DNA from: Minisyncoccota bacterium
GTDB taxonomy: Bacteria > Patescibacteriota > Minisyncoccia > Phycocordibacterales > UBA9973
NCBI GenBank assembly: GCA_039915165.1
Contig: JBDSNU010000018.1
Coordinates: 232,617-292,059 of the forward strand
Direction: 5' to 3'
DNA: 59,443 nucleotides
The position numbers and the translations under genes were made by a program. Positions 2,555 through 31,067 of the stretch are shown here, piece after piece. The notes below the pieces were generated by a model. That model was not told the origin of the DNA. It made no database searches and worked only from the letters and a program-made list of their open reading frames with translations. How positions within the stretch are numbered: the first letter of the stretch is position 1; every line of letters begins with the position of its first letter.

Positions 2555-2598
2555 TTACTTCAGATTTTCTTTACTTACCATGCGTATAATGGTCGGTT

Positions 2599-3000
2599 GT
2601 GGAAAAAGATTATAAAAAGGAAATAGAAAGAATTAGAAAAGTATACAAAAAAATCCAAGATACGTATTGTCCAGTGTTGTTTTCAAAAATAACTTTTAAC
2701 GGACAAGGATTTCACCATTTACGATATCATGGAGGTGGTAGGTCTAGGACTGTTGAGGATACATTATATAAAATAAAACTTTTTCCATACATACTACCTG
2801 TAATCATCAACTCTCGAAAGATAGTTGGATATAAAAAAGTACTCGAACCACAAAATCGGACGAATATAAGACCTCAAAAAGAAGTAGAATATTGGGCAAT
2901 CGTTGCAGAAGATAAAAAACTTCATAATATTAAGGTTATTCTAAAAAGAATCGGCAAAGGCAAACTTATGTTCTGGAGTGTGATGAAAACAAAGAAATAA
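2599..3000 (+). CDS. Small basic hypothetical protein, putative BECR/RelE-like RNase fold
   Basis: 133 aa with GTG start 8 nt after TATAAT (2585-2590). Motifs FNGQGFHHL, YWAIV, IKVILKR and MFWSV give a helix-His followed by a beta-meander pattern. Confidence 0.6.
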   Translation: MEKDYKKEIERIRKVYKKIQDTYCPVLFSKITFNGQGFHHLRYHGGGRSRTVEDTLYKIKLFPYILPVIINSRKIVGYKKVLEPQNRTNIRPQKEVEYWAIVAEDKKLHNIKVILKRIGKGKLMFWSVMKTKK

Positions 3001-3030
3001 AAAACACCTTTAAAAAAGGTGATTTTTATT
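2998..3030. terminator. Bidirectional intrinsic terminator shared by the 2599-3000 gene and small RNA 1
   Basis: Hairpin aaaaacacc-tttaaaaaa-ggtgattttt with A and T tracts on both sides. Confidence 0.7.
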
Positions 3031-3092
3031 GTGCTTGGCTTCGGCTTTAGAAATTGCTTTCGTGTCCGAACAAGTCTTACGACCACAAGCAC
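3031..3092 (-). ncRNA. Putative ~62-nt structured small RNA (sRNA1), family unknown
   Basis: Minus-strand TTGACA (3128-3123), 18-nt spacer, TATTAT (3104-3099). The predicted start at 3092 is the first base of a 7-bp closing stem GUGCUUG/CAAGCAC. Internal hairpins are GUC-GUAA-GAC, UUCGG/CCGAA and GAAA-GCAA-UUUC. The terminator follows immediately. Confidence 0.7.
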
Positions 3093-3098
3093 ATTTCT

Positions 3099-3128
3099 AT
3101 AATATCGTAAAAGTATAAATATTGTCAA
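3099..3128 (-). promoter_or_regulatory. sigma70-type promoter of sRNA1
   Basis: TTGACA-N18-TATTAT on the minus strand, starting 1 nt after the MFS stop codon. Confidence 0.7.
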
Positions 3129-3129
3129 C

Positions 3130-4290
3130 TTAACGAATATCAATTAATCTGATTGTATAAAGCGCCCCTGTTAATAAGAGGATGCCTAGGACAATAAATA
3201 GCACTGAGTAAGAAGTTTTTATAATAATCAGCCAGCCCAGAAGTGGAGCGATAACATATGCAAGAGGATGCATCATTGTATATACGCTGACAATGCCTTC
3301 ATCTTGATCAGTAATCTGTTTAAAGAAATATGTTTCAGAGAGCACTTCTACCATACAAATCCCTACGCGAGTACAAAATAGTATAGCCGCATAGATGATA
3401 ATGGAATGGGTATGTTGATGAGCGAGAGCAAAGGCTATAGTACTAATACCGGCAAAAGTAAAACCAAAAAGCAATAATTTTTTCTCGCCAACTTTGTCGG
3501 ACAATTTGCCTACCTGATATTGGAACAATACGAATGCCAATAGCATTACTGAGAATGCGCTACCGATCTGTGTCCAGTTGAAGTGCAATACTCGCGACAT
3601 GTATAGCGGAGTAAACACAGTCATCCAGACATAAAAGAATTGCAGGAGAAAGTTTATCGAGAGTATGCGACGCAATGAAGGAGATTTTTTAATAACATTC
3701 CATGCTGCAGGAATGGTTGCTTCTACATAGGGCCGGTCAATGAATGTTCTTTGACTATACGCAACGGTTATTAATCCGATGAAGAGTAGTACTGCGGCAA
3801 CAATGTAAACGCTACCAATGCTAATCCTTGCGACTAGTAAGCCAGTGAATACTGGCATAACAGCTACTGCACTATTTACTATAGTGAGATACATACCGCG
3901 CGTGTGTCCTGCTGTACGGGCATCTGTGTAGTGAGCAACAAAGAGATCACTACAATACCAAATAGTGCTTGTAAGGGCGCTGTAGAGCACGAAAACAGTA
4001 GTAAATACCAAGGGTGTTGCTGTACTGCCCAATAAAAACATTGCCCCTGATAGTAATGCAAAAATAGTTACTGAAGTTTTTACCAAACCAAATGATTTGA
4101 TGATACGCGGCAAGATAAATAATAGTATCAATGAGCCCATTGCTCCAAAGACATAAAATAGACTGGTGTATTCGCCATTAACAAACCGCTCCAAAGCAGT
4201 TGAGTTAATGTACATAACGATTGACCAGTGCGCGAAAAAGAGAAACGAGACAAGAAATATTGGTCGTAACGCTTTTGAGCTACTCTGCAT
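3130..4290 (-). CDS. MFS transporter
   Basis: 386 aa with ~12 hydrophobic segments; motif A-like GKLSDKVGEKK in the second half. Confidence 0.85.
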   Translation of the reverse strand: MQSSSKALRPIFLVSFLFFAHWSIVMYINSTALERFVNGEYTSLFYVFGAMGSLILLFILPRIIKSFGLVKTSVTIFALLSGAMFLLGSTATPLVFTTVFVLYSALTSTIWYCSDLFVAHYTDARTAGHTRGMYLTIVNSAVAVMPVFTGLLVARISIGSVYIVAAVLLFIGLITVAYSQRTFIDRPYVEATIPAAWNVIKKSPSLRRILSINFLLQFFYVWMTVFTPLYMSRVLHFNWTQIGSAFSVMLLAFVLFQYQVGKLSDKVGEKKLLLFGFTFAGISTIAFALAHQHTHSIIIYAAILFCTRVGICMVEVLSETYFFKQITDQDEGIVSVYTMMHPLAYVIAPLLGWLIIIKTSYSVLFIVLGILLLTGALYTIRLIDIR

Positions 4291-4291
4291 A

Positions 4292-6217
4292 TTATGAAGA
4301 GAGGATTACTGGCAGCACTAGTGGACGTTTTGCTGTCTGTTGGAAGAGATATTTAGAAACGATATCTGCAACAATGTTTTTGATCTGATCAATGTTTGGT
4401 TGCTGCTGACCTTTTGTTTCTTGTTCAATAGTACGCTTGATCAACGCACGTGTGTGACGAACAAGTTCTTGAGATTCTTTTAAATACACGAATCCACGAG
4501 AGATAATATCTGGAGATTTTTTAAGTAGACCAGTTTTGCTGTCGAGTAATGCTACGACAACGAACATACCATCTTCTGCTAGCATTTGACGATCGCGAAT
4601 CACCACGTTTTGTTCATCGCCAACAGAGAAGCCATCAACCATCATAGGTGCAGACGGCGCTTTCTCTTTACGGACACTGATCTTTGTACCACCATCAGTG
4701 ATTTCAATAATTGATCCATTGTCTGGCACAACGATATGATCTTCTGCCATACCCATTTCCATCACCAAGTCCTTGTGGAGCTGCAGACGGTAGTGGTTAC
4801 CGTGAATTGGAATGAAGAACTTCTCATGCATCTTGCGGTGCAACCAACGTACGTCTTCTTTGTTACCGTGTCCTGTTGCGTGAACATATTCTTCGCCAGG
4901 AGTACGGTATCCAATGATCTTGATTCCTTGTCGAGCAATACCATCTTTCATTTTTTCGATAGCACGTTCGTTACCAGGAATGATTGAAGATGAAAGAATA
5001 ACAGTGTCACCTTTCTTCAGAGAAAAGTTTTTGTCAGTCTTGTTTGCTGCACGATTAAGTCCAGAAAATTCTTCACCTTGTCCACCTGTTGAAAGGATAA
5101 GGATTTTGTGTGCCGGGTACTTATCAATATCAGTCATTGGAATAATAGTGTCCTTTGCAGGCTTCAACAAACCAGCTTCGATAGCGATATCGATGTTAGT
5201 TTTCATTGAGCGGCCATTAAGAGCAACTTTCTTACCAAGCTCTTCTGCTGTCTTGATCAATCCGATCAATCGAGTGATGTGTGATGCAAAGGCAGCAATG
5301 ATGATACGTCCATTGATACGGCGCAAAATATTTGCGAGACCTGTGTGAACTTTTGATTCAGCAAGAGAGAAGCCTTCGTTTTCGATGTTGGTAGAGTCCG
5401 TCATCAAAAGCAATACTTTTGCAGTATCAAAATACTTGTATGCTTTTTCTTCTTCAGCACTAACTACGCCATCGATCTGATCGAGCTTATAGTCACCAGG
5501 GTTCACAATATCCCCAAATGGTGTTTCGATGATCACACCCATTGAGTCTGGAATAGTATGAGTTACGCCCCAGAAACGAACTTTGATATTACCAAGAGTT
5601 ATTGACTCATCTTTTTCAACAATAACAGTATTGATAGCAGGAAGTGTAGGGAATTCACTCTGACGTTTCTTCAGCATCAAGACACTGAGGTTACGAGAAT
5701 ACACTGGTGGATTACCGATACGTGAAAGTACCAACGGTACGCCGCCGATGTGGTCAAGGTGCCCGTGAGTAATGATCAATGCGCGGATTTTGTCCTTGCG
5801 TTCCTCGAGGTATCGAGTATTAGGGATGATGTAGTCAACACCAGGAGTATTTTCATTAGAGAAGTGCATACCAGCATCGATAACAATGATGTCGTCACCG
5901 ATTTCGATAGCAGTCATGTTTTTTCCGATTTCTTCTACGCCACCAAGAGGTATAACGCGAATAGTACCTGGTTCTGGGTCAGGGATGTGAGCAGTTTTTC
6001 GTTCTGATATTTCAGTAACTGCGCCAACTTCTGGCTTTGGCCATGCTGGACGACGCTGTCTGTCATGAGGACGGCGGCCGTTAGCGAATGAGCGCTTTGG
6101 TTTAGTAGCAGCAGTTTGTCCTGAAGTAGTTGCATCAGTCGCTCGGCTTGGAGGAGTTGAAGTACGTGGTGCTGGTCGTGTAAAGAGTTCTTTTTTTGGT
6201 TGATTGTTTGGTTCCAT
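4292..6217 (-). CDS. rnj: Ribonuclease J
   Basis: PLGGVEEIGKNMT, THGHLDHIGG (MBL motif), THTIPD, HATGHG and PIHG; low-complexity N-terminal extension. Confidence 0.95.
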   Translation of the reverse strand: MEPNNQPKKELFTRPAPRTSTPPSRATDATTSGQTAATKPKRSFANGRRPHDRQRRPAWPKPEVGAVTEISERKTAHIPDPEPGTIRVIPLGGVEEIGKNMTAIEIGDDIIVIDAGMHFSNENTPGVDYIIPNTRYLEERKDKIRALIITHGHLDHIGGVPLVLSRIGNPPVYSRNLSVLMLKKRQSEFPTLPAINTVIVEKDESITLGNIKVRFWGVTHTIPDSMGVIIETPFGDIVNPGDYKLDQIDGVVSAEEEKAYKYFDTAKVLLLMTDSTNIENEGFSLAESKVHTGLANILRRINGRIIIAAFASHITRLIGLIKTAEELGKKVALNGRSMKTNIDIAIEAGLLKPAKDTIIPMTDIDKYPAHKILILSTGGQGEEFSGLNRAANKTDKNFSLKKGDTVILSSSIIPGNERAIEKMKDGIARQGIKIIGYRTPGEEYVHATGHGNKEDVRWLHRKMHEKFFIPIHGNHYRLQLHKDLVMEMGMAEDHIVVPDNGSIIEITDGGTKISVRKEKAPSAPMMVDGFSVGDEQNVVIRDRQMLAEDGMFVVVALLDSKTGLLKKSPDIISRGFVYLKESQELVRHTRALIKRTIEQETKGQQQPNIDQIKNIVADIVSKYLFQQTAKRPLVLPVILSS

Positions 6218-6246
6218 ATAATTTATTATTTAAAAATTTTCATTAG

Positions 6247-7713
6247 TTATTTCTGTTGCGTACTAGTATCTTTTCTAAACCATTTCCAGAGCTTGTCAGT
6301 ATTGGTATACCAGTCTTTCACATCTTCATACTCCGTTGTGGGAGATTCTAATGTGTTAGAAATAATTGTATGAGTAGTAGTATTGAAAACGTAGGGTAGT
6401 GCTTCTGTATATAACGGTAATGCGATTGAGTATTGAGCCGGAATAGTGACATCGCTACTGCGTGCAAGGAATACTGAAAATCCACCTGCTGTTATATTTT
6501 TTTGAAATGCCCCAGGGTCAAATGCTTTCACTGAAACATTGGCACCAATTTTTTGGAGTTGTTGTGCAAGCGTTTGTGCTGCGAGCAACATCTGAGGATC
6601 ATTTTCGACTGCAATAGAGAATCCCGGAATTGAGATAGTCTTGTTTGTTCGAGTTGCAGTACCTGCCTGAGCAGGATTTGTAAGCACTCCTGACGGAGTT
6701 CCATAACCGTATACAACTGTATCAACTATAGCTTTTTTGTCAATAGATTGGTTTATTGTGCTGATAGTAGAAGGGTTTGCTAGAGCTGAATCATTTGATG
6801 ATCGGTATAAGTTTACACCTTCATTGGTTGTTACGGTAGTGTTAATAAGTGATGTCGGTAGGTTATTGAGACTTACTGTTTCTGGCGTTAGTGAATAGGT
6901 GAAATCGATATCGCCGTTTGTGATAGCAGAGAGCAGTTCTGTTTGGTTGGCATACGTTGCAAGTGTCAGTGTTCTCAACAGTGCTTGTCCGCCGATAAAA
7001 TACTTGTTGCGCTTGAGTGTCACACTTGAAGGCATGCCATCTGTGTAAGAAATACTACTTACCTTGAATGCGCCAGATCCCACTGGGTGAAGATTTTGCT
7101 TGGCAGTAGTAAATGATTCATCAGGAATAGTTGTCCAAATATGTTTAGGTAAAATATTGAATGACATACGAGAGATGAAAGTCACATCTGGTGCAGGAAG
7201 TGTAAATATAACTGTTTGAGCATCAGGCGTTTCAATAGTAATGTTTTGCCAGTATTCACTAGAGTGACTAATAGTCGCGTCTTGCATTTTTTGTACAGTA
7301 AATGCCACATCGTCACTAGTTAATGGCTTACCATCACCGAAACGAAGTCCTGGGTGCAATGTTAGGGTAATTATTTTGCCATCAGGAGAGAACGAATATG
7401 TGTCGATATCATCAGTAAGATTGCCGTATACCAAAGCAATGAGCCGCTGATCTGTTTCTGTTGTGGCGAGTAGTGGATTAATAAAACGCGGGGCACCGAT
7501 CACACCTTCTGTTAAATTGCCGCCCTGAGCAGGGAGTTCAACGAGATATTTTTTATTGATAGTAATTATTAAAAGAAAGACTGTGGCACATAGTGCAAAA
7601 AACACTCCATAAAATAATGCTGCCAGTCCAGTCAAAGGCCATCGCAATAGTGTGCGAAGCGTTTTTGCATGTGGAAATTTTTTTGTAATAAGAAAAGAGG
7701 AAAAAGACGCCAT
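6247..7713 (-). CDS. Family-5 (peptide/nickel-type) ABC substrate-binding protein with N-terminal membrane anchor
   Basis: EGVIGAPRFINPL, LTSDDVAFT, PVGSGAFKV and LKRNKYF; N-terminal TM segment. Confidence 0.75.
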   Translation of the reverse strand: MASFSSFLITKKFPHAKTLRTLLRWPLTGLAALFYGVFFALCATVFLLIITINKKYLVELPAQGGNLTEGVIGAPRFINPLLATTETDQRLIALVYGNLTDDIDTYSFSPDGKIITLTLHPGLRFGDGKPLTSDDVAFTVQKMQDATISHSSEYWQNITIETPDAQTVIFTLPAPDVTFISRMSFNILPKHIWTTIPDESFTTAKQNLHPVGSGAFKVSSISYTDGMPSSVTLKRNKYFIGGQALLRTLTLATYANQTELLSAITNGDIDFTYSLTPETVSLNNLPTSLINTTVTTNEGVNLYRSSNDSALANPSTISTINQSIDKKAIVDTVVYGYGTPSGVLTNPAQAGTATRTNKTISIPGFSIAVENDPQMLLAAQTLAQQLQKIGANVSVKAFDPGAFQKNITAGGFSVFLARSSDVTIPAQYSIALPLYTEALPYVFNTTTHTIISNTLESPTTEYEDVKDWYTNTDKLWKWFRKDTSTQQK

Positions 7714-7755
7714 AGAGATGGTGCCTCACCTTTATCTGTTAGAGGTAAAAGGAAG

Positions 7756-7971
7756 TTAGAGAGCGATTACCCAAATAGAGAGGGCAGCGAAGAGAACAGC
7801 TACTATAATAGTCAGAACGAACAAAACGCGTTCGAGACCTCGTCGAGTTTGAAAAGCTGACATGCTATCGCCGAAGTTACTGCCAGTATCTCCGCTAGGG
7901 CGCTGAAGAAGTATCAAAGCAATAAGTGCGATGCCGGTGATTAATTGAAGACTGTGTAGCGTTGCTGTCAT
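7756..7971 (-). CDS. secG: Preprotein translocase subunit SecG
   Basis: 71 aa, two TM segments, LILLQRPSGDTGSNFG and TRRGLERVL. Upstream promoter TTGCAT-N17-TATGAT. Confidence 0.85.
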   Translation of the reverse strand: MTATLHSLQLITGIALIALILLQRPSGDTGSNFGDSMSAFQTRRGLERVLFVLTIIVAVLFAALSIWVIAL

Positions 7972-8050
7972 AGGTGAAACGTTGATATCATATCAGAAAA
8001 GAGGCGAGGATGCAATTTTCTAATCTTTATTTTGAGGGAGAAAAAAGTAC

Positions 8051-8079
8051 TTGACAAATATGTATAAAGGTGCTATGAT
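8051..8079 (+). promoter_or_regulatory. Near-consensus sigma70 promoter driving an uncharacterised transcript
   Basis: TTGACA (8051-8056), 17-nt spacer, TGc-TATGAT (-10 at 8074-8079). Confidence 0.8.
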
Positions 8080-8085
8080 GTACTC

Positions 8086-8445
8086 AGACCGGTCATAAAG
8101 ATCGTGTACATTAAATCCGCGACAATCATGCGTAACAAATCACCATCAACGAGTATTTTGTACATGGCAGTTATCTGCACACAAAATATATTTTAACTTA
8201 CCGGCGCCGGGGCCCGCGACACTACAGTGTTGAAGGGGCACACTACAGCCTCCAAAAGAAAGGAAGCAAATGAAACGCGTATTAAAACCTCCACGATGAG
8301 GACTACAAAGAGAGATCTTTGACCAACAGTTCAATGTTTAACCATTATGACGGGCATTCACAAGATGCCCGCCCGCACACAACGAGTCTGAAAGGACCAC
8401 ACACATATATATAACCGATTCTCATTAGAGGATCGGTTTTTTTAT
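8086..8445 (+). ncRNA. Putative ~330-nt structured non-coding RNA, family unknown
   Basis: Bounded by the promoter and a terminator, with no plus-strand ORF longer than ~26 aa that I could find. Long-range stem 8091-8103/8314-8324, plus hairpins gcag-ttat-ctgc and cgggcat-tcacaag-atgcccg. Confidence 0.55.
8413..8445 (+). terminator. Intrinsic terminator
   Basis: aaccgattctc-attag-aggatcggtt followed by a T tract. Confidence 0.75.
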
Positions 8446-8504
8446 TATCGTGTGCTATGCTTTTACTAAATAAACAGATTCGTAAACAATTAAATTAATT
8501 TTGT

Positions 8505-8612
8505 ATGAAAAATTACTGTGGAATTGGAAAAGATTCACCAATCGGAAGTTCGCCAATTAAAAATGGTGTAGGTACTAAAGACACAATGCTGTCCGGTGGC
8601 GTCAAAGGGTAA
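8505..8612 (+). CDS. Putative 35-aa small peptide MKNYCGIGKDSPIGSSPIKNGVGTKDTMLSGGVKG
   Basis: Below the ORF-track cut-off. It has an upstream extended -10 (TGc-TATGCT, ~8452-8460), an A-rich leader and a downstream terminator. Confidence 0.45.
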   Translation: MKNYCGIGKDSPIGSSPIKNGVGTKDTMLSGGVKG

Positions 8613-8630
8613 TCACAGAATTTCCCTAAG

Positions 8631-8662
8631 CAAAAACTCTCAGAATATATCTGAGAGTTTTT
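8631..8662. terminator. Bidirectional terminator between the small ORF and the capA-like gene
   Basis: aaaaactctcaga-atata-tctgagagttttt. Confidence 0.8.
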
Positions 8663-9699
8663 TATTTGGACAACGAGTCTAATAGTATTTTTGCTTGATC
8701 AGTTGGATCGAGAGATGGAATACCATCTTTTGAAAGTACTATTGAGGTGAAGGCGGTGTTGGTGGGTGCGAAGCGTGTGGAGGATGTATCTGCAGCATTT
8801 GAGAAAATTGTAGTATAAATGCCACCGAGAGAAAGGTTGCCAGCGGGTGTAGCAAGTCTGCCTTTGCCGCCAACAAAGTTGCCCAGTGAATAGGCAATAG
8901 GCTTACCATTAAAAGTTTCTGTTTTGCGCAACACATGTGGACCGTCACCAAGTACGAGATCTGCGCCTGCATTGATCGCAGTATGTGCAACAGCTTGAAC
9001 ATTGCCACGGTTTTCTGTGCCCATATATTCAGTTGTTCCGGTTACTGCGGTTTTTGTAGCCCCTTCTGATCCGCCGTGAAAAATTACTACCACAATGTCA
9101 TTATCTTTTTTTAATGCAGCAACAGTCGATGCGATATAGGCATAGTCGTTAATTGTTTCAGTAGGTTCAGTACTTGAAAGTCCCATGATGCCAACACGAA
9201 CACCTTTGATGGTCATACTTGTAGTTGATTTATCTGGAGCAATATAAGCAATGCCAACACGGTCGAGCTCAGCTTCTGTATCTTTTAATCCGGCATCACC
9301 ATAATCATATGAATGGTTATTTATTAAACTAACGAAATCAAACCCAGCGGCTTTGAGTGTGTCAGCAAAAGAAGGCTCGCCTTGAAAGGCGTGACACATT
9401 GAACTGATGTACATACATTTTGATTTGCGGCCATAATGCGCAAATGTTCCTTCGAGGTTGCCCATCATGAAGTCTGGCTGTTCGAGTGCATCAGTAACGT
9501 TGTTGAGTACTGTTAAGTTATATCCAATATCACTAGAAGGCACCATGTCGCCAACCCAGCCAATACTAAGAGTCTTCGCAGGTGCAACAGTAGGAGATTC
9601 AACTTTGACGATCGGATCACTGCTAGGAATAACAGAAAAATGCCACACCGCTGCAGCGGCTACAAGGCATATAACTATGAGGAAAAACTTTCTTATCAT
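8662..9699 (-). CDS. CapA-family metallophosphatase (poly-gamma-glutamate synthesis protein-like)
   Basis: VGDMV, GNLEG, NNHSYDYG, VIFHGGSE, GDGPHVL and YSLGNF; N-terminal TM segment. Confidence 0.85.
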   Translation of the reverse strand: MIRKFFLIVICLVAAAAVWHFSVIPSSDPIVKVESPTVAPAKTLSIGWVGDMVPSSDIGYNLTVLNNVTDALEQPDFMMGNLEGTFAHYGRKSKCMYISSMCHAFQGEPSFADTLKAAGFDFVSLINNHSYDYGDAGLKDTEAELDRVGIAYIAPDKSTTSMTIKGVRVGIMGLSSTEPTETINDYAYIASTVAALKKDNDIVVVIFHGGSEGATKTAVTGTTEYMGTENRGNVQAVAHTAINAGADLVLGDGPHVLRKTETFNGKPIAYSLGNFVGGKGRLATPAGNLSLGGIYTTIFSNAADTSSTRFAPTNTAFTSIVLSKDGIPSLDPTDQAKILLDSLSK

Positions 9700-11645
9700 A
9701 ACAGTGCGTAATCAATCAATCGTTTGTTGAGATCTGTTGAGAGCACTTTCAAGCGCACTCGATCGCCAATACGAAACTCCTTTTTAGTACTTTTACCGAC
9801 AATGGTCAAGTTTTTGTCATCGTATTCGTAATAATCATTACCAATATCTCGAAGACGAACCATGCCTTCACAGCGAGTTTCTTTTTCTTCAACGAAGAGG
9901 CCATTCTTTGAAACACCAGTAACAATACCGTCAAATTTTTCACCAACATGGCTGGTCATGTATTCAACTTGCTTGTATTTGATACTTGCACGCTCTGCAT
10001 CGGCTGCTTCTTTTTCGCGCTGTGATGAATGTTGAGCGATCTCATCATAGTAGTGCCACATTTCTTTAGGAATAGTTTTGTGCTGCAAGTACTCGAAGAG
10101 TAGACGATGCACTACGAGGTCAGGATAACGACGAATAGGTGAAGTGAAGTGCGTGTAATATTTAAATGCTAAACCGTAGTGACCAATATTTTTTGTAGAA
10201 TAAATAGCTTTGGCCATTGAGCGAACGATTGCTGTTTGCACGGTTTCTTTTTCTGGTTTGCCATTCAGTGACTGTACGAGATCATTAAGTTCTTTTGAAG
10301 GAATAACACCATCGTCATTTACGGTGAGCTTATATCCGATGCGCTTCAAAAAGAGCTGTAGGTTTTCTACTCGTTCTGGATCTGGTGCATCATGAACACG
10401 GTAGACGAAAACTTCTTCAGCATGTTTGTCACCAGTTGCAATAAATTCTGCTACCTTGCGGTTAGCAAGCAACATCAATTCTTCAATCATGTGATGAGTT
10501 TCGCCGCGAACTTTTTTGTATACGCCGAGTGGATGACCATCAGTATCAAGTTTGAATTTCACTTCTTCTGTTTCTAGAGAAATAGCGCCTTCTTCGAAAC
10601 GTTTCTTTTCTAAGAATTTACCAACAGCAAGTGCCGCTTCAAGTTCTTTCAAATAAGGTCCTTCTTTTGTATCAAGTACTGCTTGTGCACTTTCATAGCT
10701 AAATCGCTGGTGAGAATAAATAACAGTCTTGCCGAACCATTGGTCAACGATTTGCATTTTTGGAGTAAAGGTAAATACAGCAGAGAAGGTAAGTCGATCT
10801 ACATTAGGATTTAAACTACAAAGATCATTTGAAAGCACTTCAGGCAACATCGGAATTGTACGGTCTACCAAATACACAGACGTTGCTCGTTCCGTTGCTT
10901 CTTTATCAATAGGATGACCATGTTGTACATAGTGCGATACATCAGCGATGTGAACACCGATTTCAGTATTGCCGTCCGCTAAAAAGTTTACAGAGATTGC
11001 ATCATCGAAGTCTTTTGCATCTTCAGGGTCAATAGTGAACGTAACAATCGGACGGAAGTCGCGGCGATTATTTTTTTCTTCCTCAGTAATACCATGGTCA
11101 CTGATCTCATGCGCTTCTTTGATAACTTCAGCAGGGTAGTCACTGCCAAATCCTTTTTCAAGTGCCAGTGAAAGCATTTCCGCATTGTTTTCAAGTGGCT
11201 TGCCGAGTACGTGAGTGATCTCACCTTTTGGTGCTGCCATGGGATCATTCCATTCATAAATACGACAAAATACTTTGTTACCAAGTACTGCGCCATTGAG
11301 TTTGTCCGCAGGAATGATGATAGCAGTGTACATACGGCCGTCATTAGAAGTGATAACATTGTTACCATTTTCAAATGTCAGCGTGCCACTGTACCCAACT
11401 TTTGATCGGCGAGTAACATCGAGAACTTTTCCTTCTGGATTGTTTTCACGAGAGCCAGGAGCAATCATTGCTGTGATCTCTACTTTTACAGTGTCACTAT
11501 GAAAAGCTTTGTTCAATGCTTCACGGGGAACTTCGACTGTAATGCCGAGGTCTCGTACTTTTACGAACCCTGTTCCTTTTGTTGAAATATTAATCTGTCC
11601 TTCGTACGTTGCGCCGACTTTCAATTCCGGTGAAGTTTGTTCCAT
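9696..11645 (-). CDS. rnr: Ribonuclease R
   Basis: FTIDPEDAKDFDDAIS, HIADVSHYV, SVYLVDRTIPMLP and YTHFTSPIRRYPDL; C-terminal S1 domain. Confidence 0.95.
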   Translation of the reverse strand: MEQTSPELKVGATYEGQINISTKGTGFVKVRDLGITVEVPREALNKAFHSDTVKVEITAMIAPGSRENNPEGKVLDVTRRSKVGYSGTLTFENGNNVITSNDGRMYTAIIIPADKLNGAVLGNKVFCRIYEWNDPMAAPKGEITHVLGKPLENNAEMLSLALEKGFGSDYPAEVIKEAHEISDHGITEEEKNNRRDFRPIVTFTIDPEDAKDFDDAISVNFLADGNTEIGVHIADVSHYVQHGHPIDKEATERATSVYLVDRTIPMLPEVLSNDLCSLNPNVDRLTFSAVFTFTPKMQIVDQWFGKTVIYSHQRFSYESAQAVLDTKEGPYLKELEAALAVGKFLEKKRFEEGAISLETEEVKFKLDTDGHPLGVYKKVRGETHHMIEELMLLANRKVAEFIATGDKHAEEVFVYRVHDAPDPERVENLQLFLKRIGYKLTVNDDGVIPSKELNDLVQSLNGKPEKETVQTAIVRSMAKAIYSTKNIGHYGLAFKYYTHFTSPIRRYPDLVVHRLLFEYLQHKTIPKEMWHYYDEIAQHSSQREKEAADAERASIKYKQVEYMTSHVGEKFDGIVTGVSKNGLFVEEKETRCEGMVRLRDIGNDYYEYDDKNLTIVGKSTKKEFRIGDRVRLKVLSTDLNKRLIDYALL

Positions 11646-11747
11646 ATAGGGAATACTGTAGCATGATTCATATAAAAGAACGAAGGAAAACCTTTGACAT
11701 TTGGTAGTTTTGCCGTATAGTTTTTACAAAAATAATTTAATAAGGAA

Positions 11748-12050
11748 ATGAAAAAAACTATTCCAGTAACCGCGTCTCTTTTTATCGCAAAAAAGAAATT
11801 CGATGGTATTGCCAACTTGTTTGGTATACCTCTGTTTGGAAATGTGTTCGTGGTAGCAGGTACTACCTTTATCTGTAACAGCTTTCTTCCTGGATCTGAT
11901 GGAAGTATTACAGGAGAAATGATGCATGTCATGACAATAGTAGAAAGGGAAACTGCTGAAAAACGATTGATCTCGGCTGGCTTTTCTATCCCTATCGTTA
12001 CGCACATCACAAGAAAAGACCTACCTGAAGCACTGCAATGTGTATTTTAG
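11748..12050 (+). CDS. Hypothetical protein (100 aa)
   Basis: Upstream TTGACA (11694-11699)-N16-TATAGT and a downstream hairpin aaaacgtca...tgacgtttt. I recognise no motif. Confidence 0.5.
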   Translation: MKKTIPVTASLFIAKKKFDGIANLFGIPLFGNVFVVAGTTFICNSFLPGSDGSITGEMMHVMTIVERETAEKRLISAGFSIPIVTHITRKDLPEALQCVF

Positions 12051-12121
12051 TTACATTAAAACGTCATTGGCCCACTACGGTCGTTGACGTTTTTTCTTTT
12101 GTCTGCTACGATATGCCCTAC

Positions 12122-12427
12122 ATGTTAAAGATTCGATTACAGCGCATTGGGCGCAAAAATGAAGCAGCATTCCGACTAGTAGTAACGGATTCTAAAAACG
12201 GCCCTCAAAGTGGTAAGTTCTTGGAAATTCTTGGTTCATACACACTCAAAAATGATGCTGTAACTCTCAAGAAAGAACGTATTACTCACTGGATTGCAAA
12301 TGGTGCTCAGGTTTCTGACACTGCTTACAATATGCTCGTGAAGCAAGGACTAGTAGAAGGACGTGCAAAAAACGTACTTTCACGCAAGTCTCCAACAGTA
12401 GCTCGTAAGGAATTGAAGAAGAAATAA
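12122..12427 (+). CDS. rpsP: 30S ribosomal protein S16
   Basis: MLKIRLQRIGRKN..FRLVV..GKFLEILGSY..GAQVSDT. Start reassigned to ATG 12122. Confidence 0.95.
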   Translation: MLKIRLQRIGRKNEAAFRLVVTDSKNGPQSGKFLEILGSYTLKNDAVTLKKERITHWIANGAQVSDTAYNMLVKQGLVEGRAKNVLSRKSPTVARKELKKK

Positions 12428-12428
12428 T

Positions 12429-12460
12429 CCCCACTTCGCCTAAGGGCTTCGCGGGACAAG
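12429..12460 (+). repeat. REP-like palindrome (family C), intergenic
   Basis: ccccacttcgcctaagggcttcgcgggacaag; close match to 41087-41119 inside uvrB. Confidence 0.65.
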
Positions 12461-12571
12461 CCTCTATAAAAAACCAACAGTTGATGTTGGTTTTTTTATT
12501 TAGAAAATCTTTATGTTATTATCTATATAGGTGCCACTCGGTACTGATTAGCAGCTAATCTCTATACCTTT

Positions 12572-12877
12572 ATGTCTGACAAAGAATTTCTTGAAATGCT
12601 TATAAAAGCTCTTGTTGATAACCCAGACGATGTCGTTATCGTTCGTACCGTTGATGAAATGGGTGTACTTTTGACACTTTCTATTAACCAATCCGATATG
12701 GGTAAGATCATTGGCCGCGCAGGTAACACTGCCAAGGCCATCCGAACATTGCTCCGTGTCGTTGGTATGAAAAATAATGCCCGCGTGAACCTCAAAATCA
12801 ACGAACCGGCCGGTTATGAACGCCAGCCTGACGTTGCCAATCTAGACGACGCAATGGCCGACCTCAAAGACCTGTAA
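12572..12877 (+). CDS. khpA: KH-domain RNA-binding protein (KhpA/YlqC)
   Basis: FLEMLIKALVDNPDDV, DMGKIIGRAGNTAKAIRTLL; canonical position between rpsP and trmD. Confidence 0.9.
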   Translation: MSDKEFLEMLIKALVDNPDDVVIVRTVDEMGVLLTLSINQSDMGKIIGRAGNTAKAIRTLLRVVGMKNNARVNLKINEPAGYERQPDVANLDDAMADLKDL

Positions 12878-12883
12878 TATATA

Positions 12884-12921
12884 CATACAAAAACCCCTTA
12901 GAAATAAGGGGTTTTTGTATG
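12884..12921. terminator. Intrinsic terminator after khpA
   Basis: 17-bp perfect stem catacaaaaacccctta-gaaa-taaggggtttttgtatg. Confidence 0.8.
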
Positions 12922-13003
12922 CAGCCGAGGGTCAGGTACTATTGACTATTAATACAAAATGTGCTATTATTATAGCAGAAATTAACCCTTTAAAAACATA
13001 TAT

Positions 13004-13183
13004 ATGTCAATAATTTACGCATTATTTAACCTTTGTTTGGGCGCAATTATTTTTATTCTTTTTTATGAAGATAAAAATCGTATCGCTCTTGCTGTTGATA
13101 AAACACAGTTTAGAAATAACTTTCTACATGCTGTGAAGAACAGTACACCAACTCAGGCAACATATCGTAAAAGAAACAGATAG
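13004..13183 (+). CDS. Orphan 59-aa membrane protein MSIIYALFNLCLGAIIFILFYEDKNRIALAV...RKRNR
   Basis: Own promoter TTGACT (12942-12947)-N17-TATTAT, N-terminal TM segment, and a hairpin terminator at ~13200-13230. Confidence 0.55.
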   Translation: MSIIYALFNLCLGAIIFILFYEDKNRIALAVDKTQFRNNFLHAVKNSTPTQATYRKRNR

Positions 13184-13263
13184 GTTGTAAAAATACATGT
13201 ACCCACTTTATTTATAAGGTGGGTATTTTTGACTTTACATCAATTCCTTGTAGTATTGATCTT

Positions 13264-14004
13264 ATGAAATTTCACTTTCTGACAATTTTCCCTGAGATGA
13301 TCGAAAGCTATCTTGGTGAAGCAATGTTGAAGCGAGCAGCTGAAAAGAAGCTCGTGGCATTTGATGTGAAAAATATTCGTGACTATACATTGGATAAACA
13401 TAAGAAAGTTGACGAACGTCCTTATGGCGGTGGTCCCGGCATGGTGATGACACCTGAACCAATTTTGCGCGCCTTCAGTGCACTAAAGATGAAAGGTGCC
13501 GCCTCCGCTAAAGCTTCGGCGCGCCAAGGAAAAACTAAAGTAGTAATGCTGTCGCCAACAGGTGCGATGTTCACTAACACTATGGCTGCCAAATGGGCCA
13601 AGTCATACACAGATGTTGTATTTATTTGTGGACGGTATGAAGGAGTAGATGATCGTGTACGCAAAATCTTGAAAGCTGAAGAAGTATCTATTGGTGACTT
13701 TGTGCTAACAGGTGGGGAATTACCAGCATTAGTAATGACTGATGCAATTTGCCGTCAGATCCCGGGAGTATTAGGTACTCACGAGTCTGTTGAAGAAATG
13801 CGCACTGCTAGTCCTCGCGTATTTACTCGTCCAGAGATTTTGGAATGGCCCATCGCCGCGCCGAAGCGATTAGCAAAAGAGGGAAAAGCTTCCTTATCTA
13901 AAACCAAACCGGCTACCAGAGGCAAGAAGCACCTAGTTCCACCCGTACTTATCTCAGGAGACCATAAAAAGATCGAAGCATGGCGCAAAGCGCAGGTCAA
14001 ATAG
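13264..14004 (+). CDS. trmD: tRNA (guanine-N1)-methyltransferase TrmD
   Basis: MKFHFLTIFPEM, VDERPYGGGPGMV, ICGRYEGVDDRV, SIGDFVLTGGELPA. Contains two REP-derived in-frame inserts. Confidence 0.95.
   Translation: MKFHFLTIFPEMIESYLGEAMLKRAAEKKLVAFDVKNIRDYTLDKHKKVDERPYGGGPGMVMTPEPILRAFSALKMKGAASAKASARQGKTKVVMLSPTGAMFTNTMAAKWAKSYTDVVFICGRYEGVDDRVRKILKAEEVSIGDFVLTGGELPALVMTDAICRQIPGVLGTHESVEEMRTASPRVFTRPEILEWPIAAPKRLAKEGKASLSKTKPATRGKKHLVPPVLISGDHKKIEAWRKAQVK
13502..13528 (+). repeat. REP-like family B, in frame in trmD (SAKASARQ)
   Basis: cctccgctaaagcttcggcgcgccaag; 26 nt identical to 52566-52591. Confidence 0.8.
13854..13882 (-). repeat. REP-like family B, reverse copy in frame in trmD (AAPKRLAKE)
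   Basis: Reverse complement cctcttttgctaatcgcttcggcgcggcg. Confidence 0.55.
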
Positions 14005-14033
14005 TTGCATTTCATTACTATTTTTAATAATAT
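14005..14033 (+). promoter_or_regulatory. sigma70-type promoter of sRNA2
   Basis: TTGCAT (14005-14010)-N17-TAATAT (14028-14033), immediately after the trmD stop. Confidence 0.55.
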
Positions 14034-14039
14034 ATTCAT

Positions 14040-14120
14040 ATAGCTTGACGACAGAAACGGCTTGCTGCGGACGTCAGTAATGACGGGCTCATGAGCGCAC
14101 CGCCAACGCTCCTGGCTATA
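14040..14120 (+). ncRNA. Putative ~81-nt structured small RNA (sRNA2), family unknown
   Basis: GC-rich island in an AT-rich spacer. The predicted start coincides with the closing stem (U)AUAGC/GCUAUA. It contains CGUCA-GUAA-UGACG and GAGCG/CGCUC stems, and a terminator follows. Confidence 0.65.
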
Positions 14121-14123
14121 AGT

Positions 14124-14150
14124 AAAAAACCACCTTTTGGTGGTTTTTTA
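14124..14150. terminator. Bidirectional terminator shared by sRNA2 and the 14151-14576 gene
   Basis: aaaaaaccacc-tttt-ggtggtttttt; the stop codon of the convergent gene begins at 14151. Confidence 0.8.
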
Positions 14151-14576
14151 CTATCTTCTAATGTGAATAGATATTATTTCCATACTACTTTCTATTTTTT
14201 CCAGCAGTATTCTTAATTCACCTTTAGTAAGATGTGGATGTTTCTTTGAATAAAAATGTTTAAAATATGGCTCAAATTGGTAAAAATCAAAATTAACAAC
14301 ACTGTCATATAAGTGATTGATAATGAAATAAATAACATTTAATGAATGAAGATTATTATTTTTTGAAAGCCCCGCCTTTCTCCTCTCGACGAAATGTTTA
14401 AGGGCTTTTCGTGAAATATACACTGGTAGACCATTGTGTGGATGGTCTACTTTATTAATAATAAAAAACAGTAATAATTCTGGAGGCTTTTCTATGGGTT
14501 CACTTTCTCCCATATTGAAATATTTGCGTACTAATTTTTTTATCATGCGCAAACTATCCCGTGACCCGTGTTTCAT
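14151..14576 (-). CDS. Hypothetical protein, putative BECR/RelE-like RNase fold
   Basis: 141 aa, AT-rich. Pattern VYISRKALKHFVERR...FYSKK...LRILLE...EIISIH. TACACT lies 6 nt before the ATG. Confidence 0.6.
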   Translation of the reverse strand: MKHGSRDSLRMIKKLVRKYFNMGESEPIEKPPELLLFFIINKVDHPHNGLPVYISRKALKHFVERRKAGLSKNNNLHSLNVIYFIINHLYDSVVNFDFYQFEPYFKHFYSKKHPHLTKGELRILLEKIESSMEIISIHIRR

Positions 14577-14784
14577 TGCCGAAGTGTATTCTTTTCAGAC
14601 TCAAGAAAAAACAAAGATTTTATCTATAGGCTAATGACTATAAGGATATAATTGACAAATCTTTATATTTTGTTTATATTATAACTCTTACAGATTGTGG
14701 AAGGGTTACGGCAGAAAAACCTGTAAATTACGAGAGATTTTATAGTTAACGCCATCAGAGAAATCTGAGGCTATTTTTGGTTCT

Positions 14785-14809
14785 GCCGCCGAAGCCTTCG
14801 GCGAAGGAG
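14785..14809 (-). repeat. REP-like family B in the rpoB leader
   Basis: gccgccgaagccttcggcgaaggag. Confidence 0.55.
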
Positions 14810-14821
14810 CACGTTTAAATT

Positions 14822-17800
14822 ATGAGTAAAGCAATTCCTTTGGGCGCACAGCGTCCGAAAAAGTACTTTTCGAAATATAAGAAACCTCTTGTTGAGTTTC
14901 CAAACCTTATTCAGCACCAGCTTGATTCATTCAACTGGCTTGTAGAAAAAGGCTTGAAAGAAACTTTCAAGGAGTTCACTCCTATTAATGACTACTCTGG
15001 CAAGAAATTCCAATTGGATTTCGTGTCATTTCACCTTGTAGAACCGAAGTTCGACGAACATCACTGCAAAGAAAACAAACTCTCTCTCGAAACACAAATC
15101 AAAGCTCGCGTTAAATTGACCAACAAACAAACTGGTTCTGAAAAGGAGCAGGAAATTTTCATGGCTGATTTACCAGTAATGACTCCACATGGAACATTCA
15201 TCATCAATGGTGTTGAACGTTCAATCATTCCACAGCTCTCTCGTTCAAGTGGTGTATTTTTCACTGAACTCGAAGTGAAAGGCAAGCGTTTCTTTGGCGC
15301 TAAAATCATTCCAAACCGAGGTGTATGGATTGAAATCGAATCTGATCCAGACGGTACTGTGTACGTACGTATCGACAAGAAGCGCAAATTCCCAGTTGTG
15401 TCTCTTTTGCGTGCTCTTGGTTTGACTACAGACGAAGACATCAAAAAACACTTCACAAACGAAACAGCTCAAAAAGTAATTCTTCACTCACTTGAAAAGG
15501 ATGTAGCAAAAACTCCTGGCGAAGCGTTTGTAGAAATCTATCGTAAGCTCCGTGATGGTGACTTGGCTACTGCTGATAACGCTCGTGACTTCGTAAACAA
15601 TCTTTTCTCAGAAGAACGCTATGACCTCTCATCAGTTGGACGTTTCCGTTTCAACAAGCGTTTTGAACTTGATATGGGTGACGCAGAAATGGAACGCAAG
15701 ACATTGTCTGCTGCTGACTTGGCATTGATCGTGAATAACATCATTGCTTTGAACAATACTCCTGGCTCACACGCTGACGATATTGATAACCTTAGTTCAC
15801 GTCGCGTACGTTTCGTAGGTGAAATGCTTCAGCAGAAAATCTACGTTGGTCTTACACAGATCAAGCGTAACGTTCAGGACCGTATGTCTACTATTGATGC
15901 AACAAATGCATTGCCTATTCAGGTGGTAAACCAGCGTCCTCTACAGGCTCGTATTAAAGAATTTTTTACAACAAACCAGCTCTCACAGTTCATGCAACAA
16001 GAAAACGTTTTGTCTGAACTTGAAGAACTACGTACGTTGTCTGCGCTTGGTCCCGGCGGTTTGACTCGTGAACGCGCTACTCTTGAAGTACGTGATGTGC
16101 ACCCATCTCACTACGGTCGCGTATGTCCTATTCAAACTCCTGAAGGTCCAAACATTGGTCTTATCTTGCGTTTGTCTATCTATGCTCGCGTAAACGCATT
16201 CGGTGTTATTGAAACTCCTTATGTAAAAGTTAAAAACGGTAAGATCACTGGCGAAGTTGAATACTTGAACGCAGCTGAAGAAGAAAAAGTTGTTATTGCT
16301 CACGGCAGTAATAAGTACGATGAAAAAGGCAATCTTCCAGAAAATGTTGAAGCTCGTATTCGCACAAACCCAGGTATCGTAAAGAAAGATGAAGTGAACT
16401 ATATCGACGTTGCTCCTAACCAGGCATTCTCTGTTGGTACATCTATGATTCCTTTCGTTGAACACAACGATGCAAACCGTGCATTGATGGGAAGTAACAT
16501 GCAACGACAGGCTGTACCATTGATCCGCCCAGAAGCACCATTGGTTGCGACAGGTGTAGAACAAGATGCAGCACCATACTCAGGCCGTTTGATTATGGCT
16601 GAAGAAGATGGAGAAATCACTTATGTCGATGCTTCTAAGATCACTGTTCGCAGTGAAAAAGGAAAGGATAAGACTCATACTCTTACTTCATTCCAGCGTA
16701 ACAACAACTTCAACGCATTCCACCAGCGTCCAGTAGTAACCATGGGGCAAAAAGTTAAGAAGGGAGATCTTCTTGCTGATACTTCAACTACAGACCATGG
16801 TCAGATCGCTCTTGGTCAGAACATGATGGTTGCATTCATGAGTTGGAACGGTGCAAACTTCGAAGATGCGATTATCCTTTCAGAACGTTTGATCAAAGAT
16901 TCAAAGTTCACCTCAATCTATATTGCTGAATTTACTTCAGTAGTGCGTGATACAAAACTCGGACCAGAGGTAACTACACGTGACATTCCAAACGTTGGTG
17001 AGGCTCGTCTGAAAGATCTTGATGAAGACGGTATTATCCGTGTTGGTGCAGAAGTAAAAGAAGGGGACATTCTCGTTGGTAAAATTACTCCAAAGGGCGA
17101 AACTGAACTTACCCCTGAAGAACGCCTACTCCGAAGTATCTTCGCTGAAAAGGCTCGCGATGTGAAAGACACATCATTGAAAATGGATCACGGCAAGCGC
17201 GGACGTATTATTCGTGTGAAAGTATTCTCACGCGACCAAGGTCATACACTTGAATCAGGTGTGATCAAGAAGATCGTTATTGAAGTTGCACAGCTCCGTA
17301 ATATTTCAGTGGGTGACAAGCTCGCTGGTCGTCACGGTAACAAGGGTGTTATTTCAGTAGTGCTTCCAGAAGAAGACATGCCTTACATGGCAGACGGTCG
17401 TCCTGTTGACGTTGTGCTTACACCGCTCGGTGTGCCATCACGTATGAACCTCGGACAGATTCTTGAACTTCACTTGGGTATGGCGGCAAACGAACTTGGC
17501 TATCAAGCCATCGTGCCTCCATTCGCAGGTGCAACAGATAGTGAAATCAAAGAAGAGCTTGTAAAAGCTGGTCTTCCTGAAAATGGACGTGTACCACTCT
17601 TTGATGGACGAACTGGAGATAAATATGAACAGGACATTGCTGTGGGATACATGTATATCTTGAAACTTCACCACATGGTAGAAGACAAGATCCACATGCG
17701 ATCAATCGGGCCATACTCTTTGATCACTCAACAACCACTCGGAGGTAAGGCGCAAGGTGGAGGTCAGCGTTTCGGAGAAATGGAAGTGTGGGCATTGGAA

Positions 17801-18028
17801 GGATATGGTGCAGCGCACACCCTTCGAGAAATGCTTACTATCAAGTCCGACGATATCAGAGGTCGTGCACAGACATTCGATGCCATCATCAAGAACGAAA
17901 AAATTGGTGAGCCGAATGTACCAGCATCATTCTCTGTGATGTTGAACTATCTACGAGGCTTGTCATTGGACGTTGAACTCAAGAATACTCAAGCGGTCGA
18001 CACTGTAGAAGATGAGGTAACAAACTAA
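14822..18028 (+). CDS. rpoB: RNA polymerase beta subunit
   Basis: GRVCPIQTPEGPNIGL, GDKLAGRHGNKG, GGQRFGEMEVWALE. Confidence 0.99.
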   Translation: MSKAIPLGAQRPKKYFSKYKKPLVEFPNLIQHQLDSFNWLVEKGLKETFKEFTPINDYSGKKFQLDFVSFHLVEPKFDEHHCKENKLSLETQIKARVKLTNKQTGSEKEQEIFMADLPVMTPHGTFIINGVERSIIPQLSRSSGVFFTELEVKGKRFFGAKIIPNRGVWIEIESDPDGTVYVRIDKKRKFPVVSLLRALGLTTDEDIKKHFTNETAQKVILHSLEKDVAKTPGEAFVEIYRKLRDGDLATADNARDFVNNLFSEERYDLSSVGRFRFNKRFELDMGDAEMERKTLSAADLALIVNNIIALNNTPGSHADDIDNLSSRRVRFVGEMLQQKIYVGLTQIKRNVQDRMSTIDATNALPIQVVNQRPLQARIKEFFTTNQLSQFMQQENVLSELEELRTLSALGPGGLTRERATLEVRDVHPSHYGRVCPIQTPEGPNIGLILRLSIYARVNAFGVIETPYVKVKNGKITGEVEYLNAAEEEKVVIAHGSNKYDEKGNLPENVEARIRTNPGIVKKDEVNYIDVAPNQAFSVGTSMIPFVEHNDANRALMGSNMQRQAVPLIRPEAPLVATGVEQDAAPYSGRLIMAEEDGEITYVDASKITVRSEKGKDKTHTLTSFQRNNNFNAFHQRPVVTMGQKVKKGDLLADTSTTDHGQIALGQNMMVAFMSWNGANFEDAIILSERLIKDSKFTSIYIAEFTSVVRDTKLGPEVTTRDIPNVGEARLKDLDEDGIIRVGAEVKEGDILVGKITPKGETELTPEERLLRSIFAEKARDVKDTSLKMDHGKRGRIIRVKVFSRDQGHTLESGVIKKIVIEVAQLRNISVGDKLAGRHGNKGVISVVLPEEDMPYMADGRPVDVVLTPLGVPSRMNLGQILELHLGMAANELGYQAIVPPFAGATDSEIKEELVKAGLPENGRVPLFDGRTGDKYEQDIAVGYMYILKLHHMVEDKIHMRSIGPYSLITQQPLGGKAQGGGQRFGEMEVWALEGYGAAHTLREMLTIKSDDIRGRAQTFDAIIKNEKIGEPNVPASFSVMLNYLRGLSLDVELKNTQAVDTVEDEVTN

Positions 18029-30991: not shown

Positions 30992-31067
30992 TGGAGCCGG
31001 ATGTCAGACTTGAACTGACGACCTTCGCTTTACAAAAGCGTTGCTCTACCAACTGAGCTAATCCGGC
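30992..31067 (-). tRNA. tRNA-Thr (anticodon UGU), CCA encoded
   Basis: 76-nt cloverleaf: acceptor GCCGGAT/ATCCGGC, D arm GCTC/GAGC, anticodon loop TTTGTAA, T arm GTCAG-TTCAAGT-CTGAC. Confidence 0.95.

Follow-up and report, generated by a model that had tools for sequence, protein, structure and literature searches.

In the type I toxin–antitoxin systems txpA/RatA and bsrG/SR4 of B. subtilis the toxin mRNA is overlapped at its 3' end by an antisense RNA whose pairing triggers degradation of the mRNA or blocks its expression; the overlap is about 75–120 nucleotides (nt), and type I toxins are usually hydrophobic membrane peptides of less than 60 amino acids (aa). In the type III systems (ToxIN, CptIN, TenpIN) a ToxN/AbiQ-like toxin is coupled to an RNA that is a tandem repeat array, located upstream on the same strand, co-transcribed with the toxin and processed by it. 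A structured non-repeat RNA, the non-coding RNA (ncRNA) RCd22, neutralises the toxic protein AbiF (Abi_2) by direct binding, and this system has been described as type III-like (PMC12373285). The DUF3800 motifs (DUF3800-I to -XI, drum and skipping-rope) comprise eleven highly structured RNAs, unrelated to one another, whose association with nearby genes of a single protein family is compelling, and several of them end in intrinsic terminators; their orientation to the gene is variable and not necessarily on the same strand, and their function is not known (PMC5737381). The PBECR and LPD3 domains have been described from polyvalent effector proteins that phages and conjugative elements inject, and they are known as solo versions too (PMC5512222). 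Here we describe two loci, A and B, in 59,443 nt of Minisyncoccota DNA (contig JBDSNU010000018.1; this whole stretch is called the window below). At each of them a small protein gene converges on the gene of a structured RNA across a common terminator, and the comparison of homologous loci supports each RNA as the dedicated and conserved partner of one protein family. Read from the sequence, with a probability that we put at about 0.5, each locus would be a self-contained module of a toxin and an RNA antitoxin, type III-like in action but differently built.

Two convergent gene–RNA loci and their RNA families

Loci A and B have no sequence homology to each other and share one architecture, as a preliminary description of this DNA had stated, and both open reading frames (ORFs), both terminators and both RNA promoters are in place (Table 1). 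The protein gene and the RNA gene are transcribed towards each other, the RNA has its own σ70-type promoter, and each unit follows directly on the stop codon of a housekeeping gene, namely an MFS transporter gene at locus A and trmD at locus B. The RNA-A promoter begins 2 nt past the MFS stop codon, the first base of the RNA-B promoter directly adjoins that of trmD, and the terminator of locus B abuts the stop codon of gene B. The transcript of RNA-A probably extends through the terminator to about position 3000. Neither the promoter nor the terminator of locus B was called by the simple scanner, probably owing to a weak -35 region and, as a guess, to a stem that absorbs the T-run, and both are backed by the homologous loci. 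The genes are AT-rich (GC content 0.31 in gene A and 0.30 in gene B, with 44–45% in trmD and rpoB and 0.40 in the window overall), while the RNAs have 0.48 (RNA-A) and 0.57 (RNA-B), and a whole module takes up about 0.55 kb. The same description had assigned leaderless starts to both protein genes, which was not borne out. A TATAAT at 2585–2590, 8 nt before the GTG of gene A, has no good -35 region and in the homologue at locus L001 the TATAAT is located about 37 nt upstream of the gene, and no promoter of gene B was found.

Covariance models of the two RNAs, R1 for RNA-A and R2 for RNA-B, were built from alignments of homologous loci. Each gives a single match in the window, on the strand that had been predicted, R1 with 72.6 bits (E 1e-18) and R2 with 64.2 bits (E 1e-14). 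With R1 a score of 10.5 bits is reached on the other strand of RNA-A, R2 has no match on the other strand of RNA-B, and the next-best matches of the two models in the window are at or below 12 bits. The transcribed strand is fixed by the G-U pairs and by these scores. When 100 of 120 unrelated viral stretches were rescanned with the RNA-A model the best score was 24.6 bits, within a coding region.

RNA-A is a three-way junction with a 7-bp closing stem P1, a hairpin P2 of the form GGC-GNRA-GCC with a conserved G-U at its base, and a stem P3 in which UUCGG pairs with CCGAA and whose distal hairpin is variable. Its invariant unpaired segments are UAAG and the bases of the junction. Among 26 distinct sequences 93.7% of the cells are paired, and compensatory double changes, for example UUCAG/CUGAA and UGCGAC/GUCGCA, occur in 11 of the 17 pairs. 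None of 500 shuffles was as good, shifting the partners reduces the pairing to 22–51%, and the minimum free energy fold is the same as the comparative one (z = -2.0). The homologous A loci have an R1 match of 36–83 bits wherever downstream DNA is present, always antisense to the gene, and the -35 and -10 boxes are kept in position across 27 RNA-A loci.

RNA-B has in the window a short form of a family of about 80–123 nt, consisting of a closing stem P1, a hairpin P3 and a stem P4, together with two segments that do not vary, ACGACAGAAA and GCUGCGG. With 31 sequences 89.8% of the cells are paired and 16 of 25 pairs show compensatory changes; P1, P3 and P4 co-vary richly, as in the P4 pair of columns 87/124, where 14 sequences have U-A, 13 have C-G and 4 have G-C. 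Two pairings can be drawn for the invariant ACGACAG, one with GCUGCG, which is invariant as well, and one with CUGCCGU in the P4 loop, which would be a pseudoknot. Such a pseudoknot is possible on the alignment, the covariation fitting it and the alternative GCUGCG hairpin alike, and most of the pseudoknot partner is missing from the copy in the window. A GUC(A)-GUAA-(U)GAC hairpin had been proposed as common to both RNAs, but in RNA-A it corresponds to the conserved, GNRA-capped P2 and in RNA-B to the variable P3. All 30 B loci contain RNA-B at 46–111 bits with R2, and the loci L191–L195, which were held out of the model building, score 96–98 bits. In the 31 RNA-B loci the boxes TTG(A/C)A... 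and TAnnAT stand at a constant distance. One invariant stretch of RNA-B, ACGACAGAAA...CGGCUU (14047–14066, in all copies), resembles the conserved CR-V segment of bacterial RNase P RNA (E. coli M1 CACGACAGAACCCGGCUUAUCGG), a likeness which we take to be probably a coincidence; there is no Rfam match to RNase P.

When the 48 nt upstream of all RNAs are stacked, a TTGACA-like box at about -36 and a TATAAT-like box at about -12 appear in both families, and because of these conserved promoters the RNAs are independent transcription units and not 3' untranslated regions. In all homologous A and B loci the stop codon and the RNA are separated by an equivalent hairpin. The median distance between stop codon and RNA core is 29.5 nt in A and 26 nt in B, and there is space for the shared hairpin only. 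At gathering score the only match to Rfam 15 in the whole window is a tRNA-Thr, and in E-value mode (E≤10) the two loci give weak, terminator-driven matches far below gathering. A tRNA or tmRNA identity was rejected, since ARAGORN reports only the tRNA-Thr at 30992–31067, and coding RNAs were ruled out by the helix-preserving substitutions and by length changes of the hairpins that are not multiples of three. Neither locus contains a tandem repeat array, and the RNA is single-copy. A crude duplex search of the RNA cores against their cognate mRNAs gave no consistent complementarity, with z mostly from -1.6 to +1.0 and scattered sites.

The pairing of gene and RNA was followed in 30 A loci, four obtained by exact look-up and 26 from metagenomes with a six-sequence alignment as query, and in 30 B loci, two from look-ups and 28 from species-representative genomes, with further look-ups besides; the counts refer to loci with enough downstream DNA, more than 50 in all. 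In every one of these the matching RNA is located just past the terminator of the gene on the opposite strand, so the conserved convergent RNA expected from the window was recovered in the homologues. The A loci gave 29 R1 matches, with none downstream of the gene in L184, and RNA-B was found at 30 of the 30 B loci. R2 detects no RNA-B at the A loci, and R1 gives one weak match at the B loci (L133, 34 bits). An arrangement of this regularity far exceeds what chance would produce.

All-against-all comparison of flanking ORFs of at least 50 aa revealed no conserved protein-coding neighbour, and no small upstream ORF (20–110 aa) is conserved between loci. The RNA is therefore the sole candidate partner, and there is no candidate gene for a protein antitoxin or immunity protein. 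A hidden protein antitoxin was ruled out in the same way, no ORF large or small being conserved between the loci. The trmD/rpoB setting is found at 4 of the 30 B loci, and the housekeeping context of locus A in the window at none of the A loci; other settings of the B module are a type IV pilus operon, a restriction–modification system with SocA_Panacea, AbiEii/DUF6922, and the vicinity of PemK. Both genes are distributed sporadically; a scan of one genome per species over 185,579 species gave 28 B loci, and some genomes have two B modules. On viral contigs a loose DNA pattern of RNA-A gave nothing but chance matches, and a strict pattern of RNA-B gave 0 matches.

Single loci add some detail. 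In L194 (4001–4711) a B module interrupts a type IV pilus operon, lying between its genes for pilin and for prepilin peptidase, which illustrates the mobility of the module. The weak R1 match in L133, a Nomurabacteria genome, is an orphan RNA-A-like gene (3187–3246, minus strand) with its own promoter and terminator, which adjoins RNA-B and is divergent from a DUF6998-like gene of 186 aa and a DUF2726 gene. The A gene in L174/L175 has a single in-frame TGA at position 2199, with an otherwise intact frame and an intact RNA-A; either TGA has a sense meaning in this organism, as it does under genetic code 25, or the gene is a recent pseudogene. The B gene of L155 (2459–2930) has one frameshift that puts the C-terminal motif in another frame, beside an intact RNA-B of 95 bits, reflecting either decay of the toxin with the RNA kept or an assembly error.

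The two proteins and the reading of the modules

The evidence on the proteins is taken from their families, because the proteins of the window match nothing directly. Both are modelled confidently as soluble α/β domains, and family members have 115–180 aa; profile searches of the PDB by sequence gave nothing for either. The window copy of protein B has no Pfam match at E≤1, but 14 of 72 members of its family match PBECR3 (PF18812) at E≤0.01, the best with 2e-6 and with no competing family. Every individual score seen is below gathering, for example 22.2 bits against a cut-off of 30 in the relative P0009. The AlphaFold2 model of protein B (mean pLDDT confidence 91.9) has a helix at residues 56–70 and strands at 98–102, 106–113, 119–128 and 131–140, and its top Foldseek matches in the PDB are toxins of the RelE superfamily, namely BrnT, ParE2, RelE, HigB and PrpT, none of them significant (E≥0.16). 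Lys60, Arg66 and His138 are invariant and His61, Glu64 and Ser136 nearly so. In colicin D and PBECR3 a catalytic His preceded by Lys stands in a helix, while the last strand bears a His or Ser/Thr (PMC5512222). Protein B agrees with this pattern, having Lys60-His61 in the helix before a four-stranded antiparallel sheet and Ser136/His138 on the last strand, and a divergent RNase of the PBECR3 type with the BECR (barnase, EndoU, colicin E5/D and RelE) fold is thus a reasonable call from family profile and model. The B family comprises 91 homologues, and the named sources are nearly all Patescibacteria (Nomurabacteria, Parcubacteria, Taylorbacteria and others).

For protein A no Pfam match was found with the window copy, while 39 of 125 family members match LPD3 (PF18798), a polyvalent-protein domain for which Pfam assigns no function, at E≤0.01 (best 1.4e-7, no competing family); the individual scores seen are 14.6–23.9 bits against a cut-off of 27 bits. 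This points to a divergent LPD3-like domain. The model (AlphaFold2, pLDDT 87.2) has its elements in the same order as protein B, a helix, two short strands, two helices and four strands, and three residues do not vary within the family: Gly37, His40, which stands in a helix, and Ser127, which is placed on the last strand. Foldseek against the PDB finds no BECR structure, the best viral match falls on part of a Myoviridae protein of 1164 aa (TM-score 0.59, E 0.065), and profile-profile comparison of A with B (hhalign, shallow and deep) was not significant, with a probability below 1%. A BECR RNase is therefore kept for protein A as an open hypothesis. The BECR/RelE-like nature that had been proposed for both proteins thus holds for B at a sub-threshold level, from the 14 of 72 PBECR3 matches, Foldseek hits with E above 0.1 and the catalytic pattern; for A the evidence points to LPD3, and Foldseek gives no BECR structure. 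Close homologues of protein A are rare (5 clusters), yet the family is a large one, with 1140 representatives of 50%-identity clusters at E≤1e-3.

From the association of the genes we infer that the RNA may neutralise the nuclease or serve as its cofactor. A toxin–antitoxin or abortive-infection system fits because there is a predicted RNase with intact residues, no protein partner and a constitutive RNA, and because the AT-rich modules lie at unrelated sites. The two-gene module would be horizontally mobile and consist of a small metal-independent endoribonuclease-like protein and its dedicated structured RNA, which should be made from its own strong constitutive promoter and end at the terminator common with the protein gene. 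Acting as the antitoxin, the RNA would bind the cognate protein directly with its family-specific fold and block or occupy the active site, a direct neutralisation for which the type III RNAs and AbiF/RCd22 are precedents. If RNA synthesis were stopped or the RNA decayed, by loss of the module, phage attack or stress, the longer-lived nuclease would be freed and might cut RNA of the cell or of an invader. RNase activity, toxicity, direct binding between RNA and protein and a role in defence or addiction are all putative steps of this scheme; it agrees with the intact catalytic pattern, Lys-His together with Ser/His in B and His40 with Ser127 in A.

Several points weigh against it. Proteins A and B have no usable match in Pfam, NCBIfam, PADLOC or PHROG, all their Foldseek E-values are above 0.06, and their toxicity and RNase activity are predictions from profiles and models. 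Type III antitoxins known so far come as arrays of repeats, which the toxin processes, whereas the RNA here is single-copy. The pairing is strict as counted from the side of the protein, and one orphan RNA-A-like gene without an A protein (in L133) stands among about 60 loci. No phage or plasmid relatives were found by tblastn in GenBank phages and PLSDB or by a profile scan of IMG/VR, and an origin from phages or plasmids was rejected on this account.

The same evidence of association would apply equally if the RNA were the specific substrate, cofactor or cargo of the protein, which might process it, stabilise it or be directed by it, in a pair that does not poison its own cell and serves, for example, to target invader RNA or regulate the host. 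Segments that stay unpaired and do not vary, in RNA-B ACGACAGAAA and GCUGCGG and in RNA-A UAAG with the bases of the junction, are what specific contacts with a protein or an RNA would look like, and for the DUF3800-associated RNAs, the closest analogue, 'a biochemically challenging task' was considered likely (PMC5737381). We nevertheless hold such a ribonucleoprotein to be unlikely, since the RNAs are short (62–120 nt) with no guide-like variable segment beyond the co-varying hairpins, and since selfish or defence modules typically show such an AT-rich, sporadic and context-free distribution. Rather improbable is an antisense mechanism of the type I kind, by which the convergent transcripts, overlapping by about 25–30 nt at the shared terminator, would pair at their 3' ends so that the mRNA is degraded or its expression blocked. 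It would agree with the tail-to-tail order and single shared hairpin that are universal in both families, at a median gap of 26–30 nt, but it leaves the conserved, co-varying and family-specific core of the RNAs unexplained; the duplex search found no consistent complementarity between core and mRNA, and the soluble α/β proteins of 115–180 aa are not small hydrophobic peptides.

The polarity might also be reversed, with the RNA as the component that is harmful or active and the RNase restraining it by cleavage, following the logic of type V (GhoS) or type VIII. A predicted RNase whose sole conserved neighbour is an RNA, and the rarity of orphan RNA-A-like genes (one in about 60 loci), would suit this, but a near-consensus constitutive promoter in almost all loci is odd for a toxin, and in L155 the RNA is intact beside a frameshifted B gene, if this is not an assembly error; we regard it as very improbable. 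That the RNAs have no functional link to the proteins, and are independent small RNAs or 3'-untranslated elements of the MFS and trmD genes that happen to stand beside orphan genes, could be suspected from the window, where a housekeeping gene of the same strand immediately precedes each RNA. It is effectively excluded: the housekeeping context is seen at four of 30 B loci and no A loci against pairing in all, and each RNA has its own conserved promoter.

Returning to the toxin and RNA-antitoxin reading, we suggest tentatively that the modules may belong to a new class of RNA-partnered or RNA-antitoxin nuclease modules, as its first two families; here a BECR-type RNase would be controlled by a structured small RNA that is convergent, single-copy and transcribed on its own, in place of a processed repeat array, and that may mimic the natural RNA substrate of the nuclease. 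This class would have arisen at least twice, with unrelated RNA folds, and be found so far mainly in Patescibacteria, the Candidate Phyla Radiation. If this is true, two RNA families with covariation support would be new to Rfam 15 and to the literature searched, and would give the second and third natural example, after type III and AbiF/RCd22, of shape-based, non-antisense RNA control of toxic proteins. To our knowledge toxins of the BECR type (the superfamily of RelE, colicin D and E5) have otherwise been found only together with antitoxins or immunity factors that are proteins. The solo LPD3 and PBECR3 domains would receive a first testable function, and there would be a rare handle on conflict and addiction systems in Patescibacteria, which have few cultured representatives. 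Assays are straightforward with self-contained modules of about 0.55 kb, and the RNA–protein pairs are potential orthogonal RNA–protein switches.

Features of the window

The genes and control elements of the two loci are collected in Table 1.

Table 1. Positions of the two modules and their neighbouring genes in the window
Feature	Position	Strand	Basis and remarks
Gene A	2599–3000	+	ORF and translation; 133 aa, GTG start
Bidirectional intrinsic terminator common to gene A and RNA-A	3005–3021	both	Terminator scan
RNA-A core	about 3031–3092	−	62 nt; R1 match at 3028–3093
RNA-A promoter, TTGACA-18-TATTAT, σ70-type	3128–3099	−	Scan, 11/12 matches
MFS transporter gene	3130–4290	−	Neighbour of RNA-A
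trmD	13219–14004	+	Neighbour of RNA-B; stop codon ends at 14004
RNA-B promoter, TTGCAT-17-TAATAT	14005–14033	+	Read from sequence
RNA-B core	about 14040–14120	+	81 nt; R2 match at 14039–14121
Bidirectional terminator common to RNA-B and gene B	14124–14149	both	A-tract, CCACC-TTTT-GGTGG hairpin, T-tract; read from sequence
Gene B	14151–14576	−	ORF; 141 aa
rpoB	14822–18028		Beyond gene B

A GC-rich hairpin at about 14783–14812 lies just upstream of the rpoB start and overlaps the ribosome-binding site AAGGAG; a hairpin is also found at the equivalent place in the related genome L002 (about 3825–3850), and the element may be an rpoB leader. The ORF-poor gap at 7714–8661 contains a near-consensus promoter TTGACA-17-TATGAT with an upstream TG (8051–8079, plus strand), and a terminator at 8413–8438 with a T-run closes a stretch of about 350 nt that has no ORF of at least 35 aa on this strand and no Rfam match, making 8051–8445 a candidate ncRNA. 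CDS 21–1697 (plus strand) encodes a protein of 558 aa with a YadA-head repeat and Peptidase_S74 (endosialidase chaperone), an architecture like that of tail fibres or adhesins. Genes for RNase J (4292–6217) and for an RNB exonuclease of the RNase R/II family (9696–11645), both on the minus strand, are located within 10 kb of both modules, and would be of interest here should the small RNAs' turnover play a part.

Comparison with known systems

With the type III systems ToxIN, CptIN and TenpIN the modules have in common an endoribonuclease-type protein coupled to a small structured ncRNA without a protein antitoxin, a terminator between the two, the small size and mobility of the module, and the proposed direct neutralisation. 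They differ in that the RNA is single-copy, convergent, located downstream and made from its own promoter, and in that the proteins are PBECR3- and LPD3-like; neither A nor B matches ToxN/AbiQ, CptN or TenpN in Pfam or PADLOC, the families matching PBECR3 and LPD3 only. In the type I systems with 3' overlap there is likewise a convergent small RNA whose 3' end overlaps that of the toxin mRNA, but here the overlap should be the terminator hairpin only (about 25–30 nt), the structured core showed no consistent complementarity to the mRNA in the crude duplex search, and the proteins are modelled as soluble, with 133 and 141 aa. The layout is thus neither classical type III, there being no repeat array, nor classical type I, in agreement with what was first noted for the window.

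AbiF/RCd22 is similar in having a structured non-repeat ncRNA tied specifically to a toxic protein, and differs in the Abi_2 (Cas13-related) protein, in the RNA, and in its occurrence in Bacillota, Pseudomonadota and prophages, not in Patescibacteria. The abiF motif is located upstream of its gene, so that the layout may differ from that of the modules here. The nearest profile relatives of the proteins are the PBECR and LPD3 domains, which share the His in an N-terminal helix and the C-terminal Ser/Thr/His. In the modules described here, in contrast to the reports on these domains, they are encoded by solo chromosomal genes of Patescibacteria with a dedicated RNA, and an RNA partner is not reported there; full-text searches of the literature, with incomplete coverage, found neither RNA partners of PBECR or LPD3 proteins nor such modules in Patescibacteria. 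Neither proteins A and B nor the members of their families match DUF3800, and the RNAs match no published motif in Rfam. The likeness to the DUF3800-associated motifs drawn in the preliminary description is apt all the same, as they are the nearest published parallel to the pattern of an RNA beside a protein gene, from which the modules of the window differ by their tail-to-tail arrangement with a shared terminator and by their fixed orientation.

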